Origin: an uncultured Erysipelotrichaceae bacterium
GTDB taxonomy: Bacteria; Bacillota_I; Bacilli_A; Erysipelotrichales; Erysipelotrichaceae
NCBI GenBank assembly: GCA_946537255.1
Contig: CAMNFS010000001.1
Coordinates: 31,713-95,712, forward strand
Direction: 5' to 3'
DNA: 64,000 bases
Positions 28,461 to 34,778 of the stretch are shown piece by piece. Numbering within the stretch: position 1 is the stretch's first letter; each line of letters starts with the position of its first letter. The notes under the pieces are model-generated. The model made no database searches. It saw only the letters and a program-made list of their open reading frames with translations, and was not told where the DNA came from. A program made the position numbers and the translations under genes.

Positions 28461-28982
28461 TCAGTCAAGATACAGTACAACCCGGCCGGCTTCCCTGCTC
28501 TTTTTCAGATCAATCACCCGCTGATTCTCAGAACCCCGGAACTTCAGTGAAATATTCCGCAGCTCCTGACGGAACGGTCCATCAACAAGCACATCAATAT
28601 ATGAAAGCATTTCATCCGTATCTTCGGTATACCGCTTCCCGCCTTTCACAAGATCCCGATCATAGACAAACCCCGTATAGCTCCAGATATCCTTGTCCGG
28701 GAATACCCTGCGGACCTTCCTTAAAAGCTTTACAAGTTCCTTCTGATTGGCCGGTTCAAAGGGCTCGCCGCCCAGCAGTGTGAGTCCCTGAATATACTCC
28801 TTATCCAGGGCTTCAAGAATCTGTTTTTCCGTTTCTTCCGTATATTCCTGTCCGTAATGAAAATCCCATGTCTCGGGCTGAAAACATCCCGGGCAGGCAT
28901 TGGTGCAGCCGCTGACAAACAGGGTGACTCTTACCCCTTCTCCATCAGCGATATCATAAGTTTTCAGTGTGCCGTAATACAT
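28461..28982 (-). CDS. nrdG: Anaerobic ribonucleoside-triphosphate reductase activating protein
   Basis: 173 aa. It has DIADGEGVRVTLFVSGCTNACPGCFQPETW (radical SAM cluster), typical of NrdG. Confidence 0.92.
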   Translation of the reverse strand: MYYGTLKTYDIADGEGVRVTLFVSGCTNACPGCFQPETWDFHYGQEYTEETEKQILEALDKEYIQGLTLLGGEPFEPANQKELVKLLRKVRRVFPDKDIWSYTGFVYDRDLVKGGKRYTEDTDEMLSYIDVLVDGPFRQELRNISLKFRGSENQRVIDLKKSREAGRVVLYLD

Positions 28983-29067: not shown

Positions 29068-30483
29068 TCATTCCTTTCCATTCCAGCAATAGGTACAGAC
29101 CTCATCCTCAGTAAGACCGGTTGCCCGGATCATATCATCCAGGCGGTTGAACGCAAGCGAGGAGAAGTTCATCTCTTTCCGCATCAGATCAACCATCTTG
29201 TGATACCGGTCGGAATCCGGATTGGCATAGTCATCGAGAATGACGCGTTCCACATCCTGTCCTTCCTCACGGGCAATGATGCGGCGGGCGATCAGCTCCA
29301 TATCATTGGTGGATCGGGAGAAGTTGATATACTTGCAGCCAAAGAGAATCGGCGGACAGGCCGGGCGTACGTGGACCTCCCGGGCACCGCTTTCATACAG
29401 GAATTCTGTTGTCTCCCGCAGCTGGGTACCACGGACAATGGAATCATCGATCAGCAGCATCCGTTTGTTCTGAATCAGCTCCGCAACCGGAATCAGCTTC
29501 ATTTTCGCGATCAGATCCCGTTTGGACTGCATGGTCGGCATGAACGAACGGGGCCAGGTCGGAGTATATTTGATAAACGGACGGGAATAAGGAATATGGC
29601 TTTCATTTGAATAGCCGATGGCGTGGGCAATACCGCTGTCCGGTACACCCGCCACAATATCAAGATCCTCTGAGGTCAGAGAATCCCTCTGAGCCATGAA
29701 TTTTCCGCAGTCATACCGCATCTTTTCAACTGTTGTACCTTCATACCGGCTGGGCGGATAGCCATAATAGGTCCAAAGAAAGGTACAGATTTTCTTCTTG
29801 CTTCCAGGCTTGGAAAGAACCGTGCAGGAATCCGGCGTGATAATGACAATCTCTCCGGGGCCGAGTTCTTTATATGCACTGTAGCCGAGCTTCTCATACG
29901 CAAAGGATTCAAAGCTTGCGCAGTATCCCTCCGGCTTGACGCCGATATGAATCGGGGTTCTTCCAAGCGCGTCCCTAGCGCAGTAGATTCCCTTTTCACT
30001 CAGCATCATGATGGACATCGAACCATCAATCATCTTCTGGGCGAAACGGATTCCTTCAATGATGTTGTCCTTTTGATTGATCAAAGCGGCGACCATTTCT
30101 GTTTTGTTGATTTCGCCGCCGGACATTTCAAGAAAGTGACTGTTGGCATTGCTGAAGATTTCATCCACGATCTGATCCGTATTGTTGATCTTTCCAATGG
30201 TCACAATTGCGTAGGTACCATGATGCGAACGGACCAGCAGCGGCTGAGGATCATAGTCGGAAATACAGCCGATGCCCATATTCCCCTTCATCTCAACCAC
30301 ATCGTAAGTGAATTTGGTGCGGAACGGTGCGTTTTCGATATTATGAATCGCGCGATTGAAACCGTCTTCCCCAAACACGGCCATGCCGGCACGGCGTGTA
30401 CCGAGATGAGAATGATAGTCTGTTCCGTAAAACAGATCGAACATGCAGTCTTCCTTCAAAGCAGCCGCAAAGAATCCACCCAT
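29068..30483 (-). CDS. Amidophosphoribosyltransferase (PurF) paralog lacking the N-terminal Cys nucleophile
   Basis: The PRTase motif LLIDDSIVRGTQ is present, as are candidate Fe-S ligand positions (CTFLW.., PPILFGCKY, CTYCWNG). The N-terminus is MGGFF, where PurF has M-C-G. A strong SD AAGGAGA lies 7 nt before the ATG. Confidence 0.85.
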   Translation of the reverse strand: MGGFFAAALKEDCMFDLFYGTDYHSHLGTRRAGMAVFGEDGFNRAIHNIENAPFRTKFTYDVVEMKGNMGIGCISDYDPQPLLVRSHHGTYAIVTIGKINNTDQIVDEIFSNANSHFLEMSGGEINKTEMVAALINQKDNIIEGIRFAQKMIDGSMSIMMLSEKGIYCARDALGRTPIHIGVKPEGYCASFESFAYEKLGYSAYKELGPGEIVIITPDSCTVLSKPGSKKKICTFLWTYYGYPPSRYEGTTVEKMRYDCGKFMAQRDSLTSEDLDIVAGVPDSGIAHAIGYSNESHIPYSRPFIKYTPTWPRSFMPTMQSKRDLIAKMKLIPVAELIQNKRMLLIDDSIVRGTQLRETTEFLYESGAREVHVRPACPPILFGCKYINFSRSTNDMELIARRIIAREEGQDVERVILDDYANPDSDRYHKMVDLMRKEMNFSSLAFNRLDDMIRATGLTEDEVCTYCWNGKE

Positions 30484-30509
30484 ATATCGTCTCCTTCTTA
30501 ACGGGGGAG

Positions 30510-30520
30510 ATTATACCACA
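30510..30520 (-). promoter_or_regulatory. Extended -10 promoter element upstream of the purF-like gene
   Basis: The minus strand reads TGgTATAAT about 27 nt upstream of the ATG. No clear -35 lies at standard spacing. Confidence 0.4.
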
Positions 30521-30716
30521 AAAAAAGAGAACCACAGATGTCAACCTGTAAAGGGTTCTGGATTTTATGAATCCGATCACTGTTTCTGCCTGCTTTCTAC
30601 CCTGGCATTCATACCTGCATTCTGATCTTCCGTCTTTTCTGAAAGCGTGATAAGAAACGACAGAACCCAGTTCTGTCAGAGCACGGTTATTGTCATTTAT
30701 CTGTGGTTTCAGCCGT

Positions 30717-31577: not shown

Positions 31578-31665
31578 CCTTACACTCCTTCAATCTCATT
31601 CATCATTCAACGAAAAACCAGATTGATCTGTGCATCTTCAGATCCAACCGAGGTTCTTTTCTTCT

Positions 31666-32034
31666 TCACTTTTCCTCCAGGCGTACCATGATGACTTCCC
31701 CATCATGAATCCCGGAATTCCCAAAAGTAGTATTGTAATTGAGCTCCGTGATTCCATCTTCATGAAACAGCAGAATCCGGTACCAGCGTGCCTCGGCCTG
31801 TTCCGCAATCGCATTGCGGCAGTCCTCGATTCTGTATCCCGGCGCCGCGCTCACAACCGATTTCCTTTTATTCAGAAGGTTCAGATAGACCAGTCTGAAA
31901 CAGATCCGATCCGGCTGATTCAGGATATCCGCAGGAATCTCAGCATTCCCGTCATCAATGATTTCAATCCATTTTTCACTCATGTTCCAGCCCAGGACAT
32001 GCCTGTCCTCCTTGTTTTTCATCATATCACGCAT
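31666..32034 (-). CDS. Hypothetical protein (start uncertain)
   Basis: The ORF is 122 aa with plausible composition and no family I recognise. The only strong SD (AAGGAGGA) lies inside the ORF, so the true start is unclear. Confidence 0.45.
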   Translation of the reverse strand: MRDMMKNKEDRHVLGWNMSEKWIEIIDDGNAEIPADILNQPDRICFRLVYLNLLNKRKSVVSAAPGYRIEDCRNAIAEQAEARWYRILLFHEDGITELNYNTTFGNSGIHDGEVIMVRLEEK

Positions 32035-32179
32035 GAGCTGGCATAAACGAAAACTTCAAAACTAAAAAACAGTCCATGGGAAAAGCAGTGGTTATAACGT
32101 ATATAAAACGAATGGAAAAACAGGTTATTCAGGTTGTATCTCTTGAACCTGCAGAGCCGAATACAAAGGAGAAAGGAAC

Positions 32180-32458
32180 ATGAAAGATCGGAAGAATACA
32201 GTACTGCTTGAGGATGATCAGCTCGACGTTGTCTTTGGAGGTGTTTCTCCAGCCAGTTTTGAACTGCTGGCCCTGCAGGCGGCGGGCCTTGAGATAAAAG
32301 GATCGGTTTTCCGCAATAAAGGCGTGGTCCTGGCTTCCAGCGGTGAAAGCCTCTCAGCGGAAGAAGCGGATGCGGCAAGACAGTATTTCCTGAAGAAAGG
32401 TCATCCCGCGGCCAGCCGGAAGGATCTGCAGTTCTTTCAGACATCCGCATCTGAGTAA
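32180..32458 (+). CDS. Small secreted-peptide precursor with double-glycine (class II bacteriocin-type) leader
   Basis: The leader MKDRKNTVLLEDDQLDVVFGG|VSPASF... fits the LSxxELxxIxGG consensus, with hydrophobic residues at -4, -7 and -12. SD AAGGAGAAAGG lies 4 nt upstream. The predicted core is 71 aa. Confidence 0.6.
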   Translation: MKDRKNTVLLEDDQLDVVFGGVSPASFELLALQAAGLEIKGSVFRNKGVVLASSGESLSAEEADAARQYFLKKGHPAASRKDLQFFQTSASE

Positions 32459-32576
32459 CTGATTCATTGCCCTGTATCAATAACAAATCGCTTGTACCCT
32501 TTTACTGCCGGAAGAATTTTTTTCCGGAAATAAGAAAGACCCTCAGAGACTGAGAGTCTTTCAGAGTTCGAGCTCA

Positions 32577-34778
32577 TTACAGATGAAGCACACGCTCCTT
32601 GATTTCCTGCGTGCGTCCCTGATTCCAGAACTGGGTTCCGATATACCCACAGGTCCTTCTGGCAACATTCATCGTATTCTGATCGGTGTTGCCGCAGTTC
32701 GGGCACTTCCAGATCAGCTTGTGATTTTCATCTTCCTTGATTTCTATTTCGCCGTCATATCCGCATTTCTGACAATAGTCGCTCTTGGTGTTGAGCTCTG
32801 CATACATGATCGTATTGTAGATATGCTTCATGACCGCAAGAACTGCCGGAATGTTGTTCTGCATGTTCGGGACTTCCACATACGAGATGGCTCCGCCCGG
32901 GGAAAGCTTCTGGAACGCGCTTTCCTGAGTCAGTTTGTCAAAGGCATTGATTTCCTCTGCCACATGAATGTGATAGCTGTTGGTAATATAGTTCCTGTCT
33001 GTGACATGCGGAATGACTCCGAAGCGCTCCTGCAGGCACTTGGCAAACTTGTAGGTCGTGCTTTCCATCGGGGTTCCATAGACTGAAAAGTCAATATTGC
33101 TTTCCTTTTTCCACTTCAAGCATGCGTCATTCATATGCTGCATGACGGCAAGACCGAACTTTCTTCCCTCTTCACTGGTATGCGATTTGCCAGTCATGTA
33201 ATAGACGCATTCGGACAGTCCGCCATAGCCAAGGCTGATGGTGGAATATCCATCATAAAGAAGCTTGTCAATGACCTCGCCTTTTTCCAGTCTTGCCAGC
33301 GCTCCATACTGCCAGAGAATCGGCGCGACGTCACTCGGTGTACCCTTGAGCCGATTATGGCGGATCATCAGTGCTCTGTGGCAGAGTTCAAGACGCTCAT
33401 CAAAAATCTTCCAGAAACTCTCCATATCCTTTTTCGAGGAACAGGCAATGTCCACAAGGTTCAGGGTGACAACCCCCTGATTGAAGCGGCCATAATAGCG
33501 ATGTACTCCCTCATGGTAATCCTTTGCCTTGGCAATATTGGCTACGCCGGCATCGGTAAAGCGGTCCGGTGTCAGGAAGGAACGGCAGCCCATGCAAGGA
33601 TAGACATCTCCCTTGAGTTCCTTCATCATCTTTGCGGAAATATAGTCCGGTACCATCCGCTTCGCGGTGCATTCCGCAGCGAGTTTCGTCAGATAATAGT
33701 ATTTGCTGTCTTCATGGATATTGTCTTCATCCAGGGCATAGATCAGCTTCGGGAACGCCGGCGTGATATAAACGCCCTTTTCATTTTTGACGCCGAGAAT
33801 CCGCTGCTTCAGCATCTCCTCAATGATGATGGCAAGGTCATCTCTGACCTGGCCTTCCTCCACTTCGTCCAGATACATGAACACGGTCACAAACGGAGCC
33901 TGACCATTGGTAGTCATCAGGGTAATAATCTGATACTGCATGGTCTGTACACCGGTCTTGATTTCCTTGCGGACCCGTTCTTCCGCGATCATATTGATCC
34001 GGTCATTATCCACTTCAATCCCTGCGGCGGCAAGTTCCTCCGCTACTGCCTGACGGTGCTTTTTCCGGGAGACTTCGACAAACGGCGCAAGATGAGCCAG
34101 CGTAATGGTCTGGCCGCCATACTGGTTGGAAGCGACCTGGGCAATAATCTGCGTCGCGATATTGCATGCGGTGGCAAAGCTGTGCGGCTTTTCAATCGCG
34201 GTCTCACTGATCACCGTTCCGTTCTGCAGCATGTCCTCAAGATTGACCAGGCAGCAGTTATGCATCGGCTGAGCAAAATAATCGGCATCATGAAAATGAA
34301 TGATTCCTTTCTCATGGGCATCGATAATATCCGGCGGAAGCAGGAAGCGTCTGGTGATATCCTTGGAGACCTCTCCTGCCATATAGTCCCGCTGGGTGCT
34401 GTTGACAGTCGGATTCTTATTGGAGTTTTCCTGCTTGGCCTCTTCGTTATAACGGCCGATCAGGGAAAGAATCTGTTTGTCAGTAGTATTTGCCTTGCGT
34501 ACCAGAGCTCTTTCATACCGGTAGGTAATATAGTTATGGGCGAGCTGGAAGGCTTTTTCAGCCATAACCTCGGTTTCAACCATATCCTGAATCTCTTCGA
34601 CCGCAAGACTTCTCTTCAGTTTCTCACAGGCTTCCACAACCCGGTCCGTGATCAGACGGATCTGTTCTTCGGAAATCTGGCTGGTTTCTACGGTAGCGGC
34701 ATTTGCCTTGCGCACGGCATTTTCAATCTTGGAGGCGTCAAATGTGACTTCTTCTCCGCTGCGCTTGATTACGTTCAT
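32577..34778 (-). CDS. nrdD: Anaerobic ribonucleoside-triphosphate reductase (class III), with N-terminal ATP-cone
   Basis: 733 aa. It has an ATP-cone (MNVIKRSGEEVTFDASKIENAV), a C-terminal Zn ribbon (CQKCGYDGE...CPNCG) and the glycyl radical motif RRTCGYIG. Confidence 0.97.
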   Translation of the reverse strand: MNVIKRSGEEVTFDASKIENAVRKANAATVETSQISEEQIRLITDRVVEACEKLKRSLAVEEIQDMVETEVMAEKAFQLAHNYITYRYERALVRKANTTDKQILSLIGRYNEEAKQENSNKNPTVNSTQRDYMAGEVSKDITRRFLLPPDIIDAHEKGIIHFHDADYFAQPMHNCCLVNLEDMLQNGTVISETAIEKPHSFATACNIATQIIAQVASNQYGGQTITLAHLAPFVEVSRKKHRQAVAEELAAAGIEVDNDRINMIAEERVRKEIKTGVQTMQYQIITLMTTNGQAPFVTVFMYLDEVEEGQVRDDLAIIIEEMLKQRILGVKNEKGVYITPAFPKLIYALDEDNIHEDSKYYYLTKLAAECTAKRMVPDYISAKMMKELKGDVYPCMGCRSFLTPDRFTDAGVANIAKAKDYHEGVHRYYGRFNQGVVTLNLVDIACSSKKDMESFWKIFDERLELCHRALMIRHNRLKGTPSDVAPILWQYGALARLEKGEVIDKLLYDGYSTISLGYGGLSECVYYMTGKSHTSEEGRKFGLAVMQHMNDACLKWKKESNIDFSVYGTPMESTTYKFAKCLQERFGVIPHVTDRNYITNSYHIHVAEEINAFDKLTQESAFQKLSPGGAISYVEVPNMQNNIPAVLAVMKHIYNTIMYAELNTKSDYCQKCGYDGEIEIKEDENHKLIWKCPNCGNTDQNTMNVARRTCGYIGTQFWNQGRTQEIKERVLHL

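Follow-up and report, generated by a model that had tools for sequence, protein, structure and literature searches.

The 64,000-nucleotide stretch of contig CAMNFS010000001.1 analysed here (the window), from an uncultured Erysipelotrichaceae bacterium of sheep-gut origin, carries on its minus strand, between degV and nrdG as an earlier note on this DNA had stated, a gene for a homologue of PurF, the glutamine phosphoribosyl pyrophosphate (PRPP) amidotransferase. In this protein glycine stands at the site of the catalytic N-terminal cysteine (Cys1). The gene, its product and the family to which they belong are called F' below, and canonical purF is called F where the two occur together. The first committed step of purine synthesis is presented in textbooks as glutamine-dependent. 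From its sequence and the operons of its relatives, F' is probably a glutamine-independent, ammonia-dependent PRPP amidotransferase acting as PurF, in which the whole phosphoribosyltransferase (PRTase) and the [4Fe-4S] site would have been kept and the glutaminase half-reaction lost. The gene and its main parts are:

29068..30483, minus strand: F' coding sequence, a Cys-less PurF homologue of 471 amino acids plus stop (open reading frame list and translation)
29794..30483, minus strand: N-terminal nucleophile (Ntn)-type domain, residues 1-230, class II amidotransferase-like and without glutaminase residues (Pfam GATase_7, AlphaFold2 superposition, residue alignment)
29071..29793, minus strand: type I PRTase domain, residues 231-471 (alignment to PurF chains in the PDB)
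30478..30480, minus strand: codon 2, GGT (Gly), the site of the PurF catalytic Cys1 (sequence)
30490..30496, minus strand: ribosome-binding site AAGGAGA, 6 nucleotides before the ATG (sequence reading)

Codon 2 and the fold of the protein

The translated open reading frame begins MGGFFAAALKEDC, an MGGFF start that is reached directly, with none of the propeptide of Bacillus subtilis-type PurF, and the AAGGAGA element lends the start the support that had been claimed for it. Gly2 leaves the protein without the N-terminal Cys nucleophile of the glutamine PRPP amidotransferases. Four independent sheep-gut metagenomes gave Logan contigs that match positions 30380-30548 with zero differences and read GGT, not TGT, at codon 2, an identity which shows, at assembly level, that this codon is no assembly error. 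Database searches with the protein found more than 8000 homologues, the top 120 of which are 72-100% identical to it. Among these closest relatives 117 start MGG(F/Y)F, MSGYF or MSGFF; for the remaining three a different or longer N-terminus is predicted, and not one begins M-C. At the codon-2 position, full-length relatives as low as 32% in identity carry G, S, T, A, K or D, and the corresponding column of 263 family members holds 219 G, 33 S, three T, three A, one K, one D and no Cys.

The overall architecture is that of PurF. Among solved structures, B. subtilis PurF is the nearest to F' in sequence (6e-45, approximately 31% identity), and the AlphaFold2 (AF2) model of F' (predicted local distance difference test score (pLDDT) 80.6, predicted template modelling score 0.82) superposes best on the same protein (1ao0; template modelling (TM) score 0.79/0.81). 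All of the top PDB fold matches are PurF (TM 0.75-0.81), in agreement with a two-domain PurF fold; beta-lactam synthetase appears among the distant ones. Profile matches are more restrained. Pfam GATase_7 is found on residues 76-186 only (1.8e-7, 31.6 bits, cutoff 25), GATase_4 and GATase_6, both of which match canonical copies, are absent from the Pfam result, and Pribosyltran (PF00156) reaches 15.9 bits against a cutoff of 26.3, with both the motif and the fold present. The NCBIfam purF equivalog model TIGR01134 scores 175 bits, below its cutoff of 350, and NCBIfam contains no model specific for the F' family. A family-specific helical insertion of some 30 residues lies at approximately 400-430 (AF2 helices 394-438, pLDDT about 89-93).

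The glutamine site and the retained catalytic residues

The 263 family members were aligned with PurF from Escherichia coli, B. subtilis, Ruminococcus albus and Saprospira. At the residues that form the glutamine site (E. coli numbering) the family reads as follows:

R26: Leu in 241 and Met in 17 of the 263 members; L27 in the window protein
R73/Y74/T76 glutamine loop: 8 residues shorter across the family, with an invariant Ser-Asp in its place
30250..30267, minus strand: the deletion site in the window protein, residues 73-78 (CISDYD), which holds the family-invariant S75-D76 (PurF alignments)
N101: Val or Ile in the family; I96 in the window protein
D127: variable in the family; K127 in the window protein

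Judged by alignment, it is thus the entire glutamine site that is gone across the family, and not the nucleophile alone. The proposal that the protein would be unable to use glutamine, first made from Gly2, is strengthened accordingly by the family-wide loss of every other PurF glutamine-site residue.

The PRTase half has been treated quite differently. The equivalents of K326, R332, D366, D367, S368, R371, G372 and T373 and the GVPDSG loop are 95-100% conserved in the 263 sequences, and in the window protein they are K305, R312, D346, D347, S348, R351, G352, T353 and GVPDSG. At this level of retention a pseudoenzyme is not expected. The catalytic and putative cluster-binding features of this half are:

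29494..29571, minus strand: flexible catalytic loop K305-L330, KYTPTWPRSFMPTMQSKRDLIAKMKL (family alignment)
29422..29448, minus strand: PRPP-binding loop D346-Q354, DDSIVRGTQ (sequence)
29785..29787, minus strand: Cys233, putative [4Fe-4S] ligand 1, Cys in 263 of 263 members and in all four canonical references
29335..29337, minus strand: Cys383, putative [4Fe-4S] ligand 2, Cys in 262 of 263
29086..29097, minus strand: Cys463-x-x-Cys466 (CTYC), putative [4Fe-4S] ligands 3 and 4, each Cys in 260 of 263

In the flexible loop, K305 and R312 (equivalent to E. coli K326 and R332) are Lys in 262 and Arg in 261 of the 263 members, and AF2 confidence is low, as expected of a mobile loop. The D/D/S/R/G/T residues of the PRPP loop are 95-100% conserved, while its last position is Gln (Q354) in 262 of 263 members and Thr in canonical PurF. 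C233, C383, C463 and C466 align with the ligands of B. subtilis-type PurF and are at least 99% conserved, consistent with a putative cluster; the Cys383 column has Cys in the canonical PurFs of the Fe-S type and Asn in E. coli PurF, which has no cluster. The four motifs picked out in the earlier note (LLIDDSIVRGTQ, CTFLW, GCKY and CTYCWNG) are all found in the protein, so that its description as a PurF homologue with Gly for Cys1 and with PRTase and Fe-S features intact (MGGFF, the PRPP loop and all four Cys being present) was correct, and the alignment with PurF families for which it called has given a GATase_7 match, a lost glutamine site and retained PRTase residues. Added to these is a set of invariant residues peculiar to the family, namely D22-Y23-H24, S75-D76, W237, Y306-T307-P308, W310 and Q354.

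Phylogeny, distribution and gene context

A neighbour-joining tree gathers 39 of the 41 F' sequences into a single clade, which a long branch separates from canonical PurF; the canonical copies from the same genomes fall outside that clade. The other two, P0222 and P0230, branch at its base, still with Cys or QHRG, and may stand between PurF and the Cys-less family as intermediate forms; P0222 has ..NCGIVG and LQHRGQQ, and P0230 has LQHRG and lacks the Cys. On this tree F' is an old, separate and monophyletic branch of PurF, not a recent point mutant, which makes moot the earlier concern that a single G-to-T change in codon 2 could account for its Gly.

Distribution was gauged by pattern-limited scans of species-representative genomes, with three seeds:

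Window-protein seed: 419 species, among them Solobacterium, Bulleidia and many rumen and gut Lachnospiraceae
P0271 seed (a 55%-identical relative): at least 595 species, in Oscillospiraceae and Butyricicoccaceae
Bacteroides-member seed: at least 589 species, in Bacteroides, Phocaeicola, Parabacteroides and Prevotellaceae

The family is also present in Peptoclostridium acidaminophilum, in Muribaculaceae and in a bacterium with multihaem cytochromes, and its hosts overall comprise Erysipelotrichaceae, Lachnospiraceae, Oscillospiraceae, Peptoclostridium, Bacteroidales and at least one archaeon. The archaeal member (40% identical; locus L256, 8001-9386) lies directly after the genes for two DNA polymerase D (PolD) subunits, with a Cdc6/Orc1 gene nearby, and its occurrence means that the family spans both prokaryotic domains. 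Every host found is an anaerobe of gut, rumen or mud; the phylogenetic spread of MGGFF-type relatives, which had been left as a point to check, is therefore wide among gut and rumen anaerobes and falls into one clade. Names in RefSeq are inconsistent, the orthologue in Parabacteroides distasonis (L087, 6001-7407) being a 'hypothetical protein' and its 83%-identical counterpart in Bacteroides finegoldii an 'amidophosphoribosyltransferase'. In Lachnospiraceae bacterium NE2001 the gene occurs on two scaffolds (L040 and L044) with the same upstream neighbours, as a recent duplication or an assembly duplicate.

Operons of relatives bear on the function. The relative P0271 belongs to a 90%-identity cluster whose representative, P0121, shares 55% identity with the window protein. 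The gene for P0271 lies in the order purE-purC-F'-purM-purN-purO-purH-purD-purL, where the F' start and the purC stop overlap. Locus context was counted in the best 80 of each scan's matches, and in 75 of the 80 Oscillospiraceae and Butyricicoccaceae species loci the same operon order is seen with F' at the purF position. It is the sole PurF-type gene of the operon in 63 of these 75, and in the other 12 a canonical purF (recognised by its propeptide, ..HEEC followed by GVFG, and by LQHRGQE) stands beside it. The tandem orders vary: F-F' in Agathobaculum, F'-F in Intestinimonas and Flavonifractor, and E-F'-C-F in another. When the scan was started from the canonical gene, 67 of 80 loci had purE-purC-purF-purM... 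without F' and 10 had both. Across related species one and the same operon position is thus occupied by F, by F and F', or by F' alone, which is the pattern expected if one enzyme replaces another. Among the matches listed, only four assemblies, of the tandem type, are shared by the F' and canonical lists, and the canonical gene was not recovered from Lawsonibacter or Pseudoflavonifractor among those matches, which is suggestive only.

Pur linkage extends beyond this group. One member, 39% identical and with Lys as residue 2, has purN and purD directly after it, and a Muribaculaceae member lies 133 nucleotides after purL. In the subfamily of the window's gene, two Acetatifactor loci have purE immediately upstream of F', and five further loci have purC, purD or purL within a few kilobases (purL about 3 kb away in three). 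The earlier statement that the gene is not in a pur operon consequently holds for the window and fails for the family, in which association with pur genes is found among the relatives. Searches of PLSDB with B. subtilis, Saprospira, R. albus and Bacteroides queries returned no second PurF from the same strains, the genomes held there being incomplete; they yielded seed sequences and new F' hosts.

Several observations on these loci stand apart from the question of F' itself. The Oscillospiraceae pur operons (L090-L093 and L096-L175) encode a PF07826 archaeal PurO-type inosine monophosphate cyclohydrolase beside an AICARFT-only PurH, and a pyr operon lies divergently upstream. The canonical purF of Ruminococcus albus 7 (L089, 7712-11368) is located on the 352-kb replicon pRUMAL02, adjoining an ammonium transporter gene and distant from other pur genes, and it follows from this standalone purF that a lone position is not unusual for the gene in Clostridia.

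The surroundings of F' in the window are of a different kind from the pur operons, with DegV encoded upstream, an NrdG-type activase downstream and NrdD further upstream. The gene nrdD occupies 32577-34778 and nrdG 28461-28982, and between them lie degV, the F' gene and a stretch at about 31600-32500 without a Pfam match. Two further elements precede the gene:

30510..30518, minus strand: extended -10 promoter element TGgTATAAT (sequence reading)
30658..30678, minus strand: terminator-like hairpin after degV, which parts degV from the F' unit

The promoter element was left unlisted by a consensus promoter scan, there being no -35 box at 16-18 nucleotides. Taken with the hairpin after degV, it indicates that the F' gene has its own transcription start, and the resulting leader of about 25 nucleotides is too short for a riboswitch. 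The contigs of the four sheep-gut metagenomes match to 30548 and resume at 30551 of the window, which suggests a 2-nucleotide (GT) difference at 30549-30550, just upstream of the promoter; an alignment end effect is the alternative. The nrdG start is 85 nucleotides past the F' stop and a terminator-like site was not found in this gap, so the two genes may be co-transcribed. A functional link between F' and nrdD/nrdG was considered and rejected, since the arrangement was not seen in other genomes and is taken as coincidence. Fragments of the F' gene are present in three sheep-gut metatranscriptome assemblies, a slight indication that it is expressed.

Function of F' and comparison with known systems

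In the reaction proposed, F' would convert PRPP and NH3 to 5-phosphoribosylamine and pyrophosphate, drawing its nitrogen from the ammonia of the medium or cytoplasm, in solution, instead of from glutamine. It would catalyse the opening step of de novo purine synthesis, alone or as an ammonia-using isozyme, and the window orthologue would presumably do what its operon-embedded relatives do. The remodelled N-terminal domain, with its invariant S75-D76 and D22-Y23-H24, could serve for ammonia entry or structural support. Both the catalytic activity and ammonia as the donor are what we infer from the conserved residues and the operons, and the ammonia dependence raised as one option in the earlier note is the best reading of the sequences. 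Such an enzyme would be workable in the ammonia-rich gut and rumen, where the ATP cost of glutamine synthesis would be spared. Ammonia dependence fits hosts that are strict anaerobes of these ammonia-rich habitats, and a retained Fe-S site, if the aligned cysteines do bind a cluster, fits strict anaerobes too.

A number of observations pull the other way. There is no pur gene within the 64-kb window, where the flanks of F' are degV and nrdG, and no purine, ZTP or PRPP riboswitch (Rfam) precedes F' there or in the 16 related loci with long upstream gaps. The window's subfamily is mostly standalone, with neighbours that differ between genomes: clustering of the open reading frames of 80 loci gave no shared neighbour, the commonest being Cu-ATPase, an FprA-like protein, RlmH, PPK2, GatC, UvrD, CysE and TpiA. 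For this subfamily gene context is by itself of little guidance. In Bacteroidales it is pepT that follows F' in 54 of 80 loci, with gcvT after it in 50, and pur genes are not the conserved neighbours. The counts of F' alone are counts within the operon, and the 12 tandem operons show that F' is not always a replacement for PurF; a role as partner subunit also fits them, and they leave room for that or for an isozyme. Finally, the conservation of the N-terminal domain and its new invariant residues exceed what a merely vestigial domain would need.

These points feed two rivals. According to the first, which is unlikely, F' is a PRPP-dependent transferase for another nucleophile, either a different amine or nitrogen delivered by a separate glutaminase or partner, and its product may lie outside purine synthesis. 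The new invariant residues D22, Y23, H24, S75 and D76, which line the former glutamine site, and the change of Thr to Gln in the PRPP loop would suit a new substrate, as would the lack of pur linkage of the window's gene and the conserved pepT and gcvT of Bacteroidales. However, the position between purC and purM, like the order F'-purN-purD, is exactly where phosphoribosylamine is needed, and there is no extra glutaminase gene in the pur operons. Moreover, GcvT releases ammonia and one-carbon units and peptides give glycine, so that the Bacteroidales neighbourhood would also fit purine synthesis, and the link from gcvT to F' through ammonia and one-carbon units may or may not be meaningful. 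As to the loci themselves, the Bacteroidales ones are L086 (9001-12904), L087 (6001-9783) and L258-L337; pepT also follows F' in P. acidaminophilum (L085), and the linkage is absent from all 83 Erysipelotrichaceae and Lachnospiraceae loci.

According to the second, which is improbable too, F' partners canonical PurF in a non-catalytic or a regulatory role, the two forming mixed oligomers that would tune activity or feedback inhibition. PurF is a dimer or tetramer. F' would then be a true paralogue, the term used in the earlier note, which presupposes a canonical purF in the same genome. The two genes do adjoin in 12 of the 80 Oscillospiraceae operons, and the scan started from the canonical gene showed both in 10 of its 80 loci; these pairs mirror the purF-purF' pairs of Crenarchaeota, and a partner role would fit an N-terminal domain strongly conserved despite its absent glutaminase residues. 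On the other hand, conservation of the PRTase catalytic residues at about 99% is unusual for a pseudoenzyme, and F' is the only PurF-type gene in 63 of the 80 operons. Among the matches listed in the scan seeded with the canonical gene of a sister genus, canonical copies come only from tandem-type assemblies, which again is suggestive only. No second PurF was seen in the 64-kb window or in the first 83 related loci. The different or regulatory role that the earlier note had allowed for is accordingly disfavoured, given that in 75 of the 80 Oscillospiraceae species a 55%-identical relative holds the purF position, in 63 of them as the operon's only PurF-type gene. There is virtually no prospect that F' is an ordinary glutamine-dependent PurF with a miscalled start or a sequencing error at codon 2, or a decaying pseudogene: although one G-to-T change in that codon would restore Cys and the Prokaryotic Genome Annotation Pipeline (PGAP) calls most family members 'amidophosphoribosyltransferase', all three explanations of Gly2 are refuted by the identity of the codon in four independent assemblies, the lack of Cys in all 263 relatives, the want of any in-frame extension upstream of an ATG with a ribosome-binding site 6 nucleotides before it, the parallel loss of R26, the R73/Y74 loop, N101 and D127, and a conservation of 72-90% across bacterial families that excludes decay.

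The preferred reading, an ammonia-dependent enzyme acting as PurF, can be widened, though on a tentative footing and at somewhat less than even odds. It is conceivable that the whole of this ancient PurF branch uses free ammonia and is the sole enzyme of the step in many of the anaerobes that dominate gut and rumen (Bacteroidales, Oscillospiraceae, Lachnospiraceae and Erysipelotrichaceae), its former glutaminase domain having been rebuilt with new invariant residues as a module for ammonia entry or sensing. If F' does act in this way, a large proportion of the anaerobes of gut and rumen (419 to more than 595 species representatives in each of the three scans) would run the first committed step of purine synthesis on free ammonia, and their purine supply would be tied directly to ammonia availability. 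Glutamine-analogue inhibitors would miss such an enzyme. Metabolic models would need correcting, as would annotation, in which the present PGAP names are 'amidophosphoribosyltransferase' or 'hypothetical protein'.

The nearest known system is B. subtilis-type PurF (EC 2.4.2.14; PDB 1AO0/1GPH), with which F' has in common the two-domain fold (TM about 0.8, approximately 31% identity), the PRPP loop, the flexible loop, GVPDSG and four Cys at the ligand positions, and whose place in the operon is taken by F' relatives. F' differs from it in the absence of the propeptide, Cys1, R26, the R73/Y74 loop (an 8-residue deletion), N101 and D127, in a PRPP loop that ends in Gln and not Thr, and in the helical insertion of about 30 residues in the C-terminal part. 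Other class II amidotransferase homologues lack the Cys, beta-lactam synthetase and CarA being examples among AsnB relatives, and AsnA and AsnB are ammonia- and glutamine-dependent enzymes for one step. They are alike in showing that an Ntn scaffold can outlive its nucleophile, or that ammonia and glutamine enzymes can form pairs, but their synthase domains and reactions are others, and the relation to F' is one of analogy and not of membership.

The laboratory precedent for the proposed action of F' is E. coli PurF, for which replacement of Cys1 is reported to abolish glutamine use while formation of phosphoribosylamine from ammonia is kept (Mei and Zalkin 1989, as cited in PMC3261824). Those mutants carry point changes in a full glutaminase domain, whereas F' is a natural lineage under selection, its glutamine site remodelled throughout. 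The literature search turned up no characterisation of a bacterial Cys-less PurF, papers on the Fibro-purF RNA and on Coaux-Seq containing nothing that bears on it, and, for archaea, a single proposal. This proposal concerns the crenarchaeal PurF', a PurF homologue without the N-terminal Cys whose gene adjoins purF and other pur genes and for which an ammonia-dependent role was proposed, without a test (Brown et al. 2011, PMC3261824). In their arrangement the crenarchaeal pairs resemble the tandem F and F' operons of Oscillospiraceae. They differ from bacterial F' in that the latter is often the only PurF-type gene of its operon, and from the archaeal member of the F' family in that this one adjoins PolD genes, not pur genes. 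With F', the 2011 proposal would become testable in genetically tractable organisms such as Bacteroides. Measured against these systems, what appears to be new in F' is a protein with the fold and the likely product of PurF from which the features that define its glutaminase are missing.

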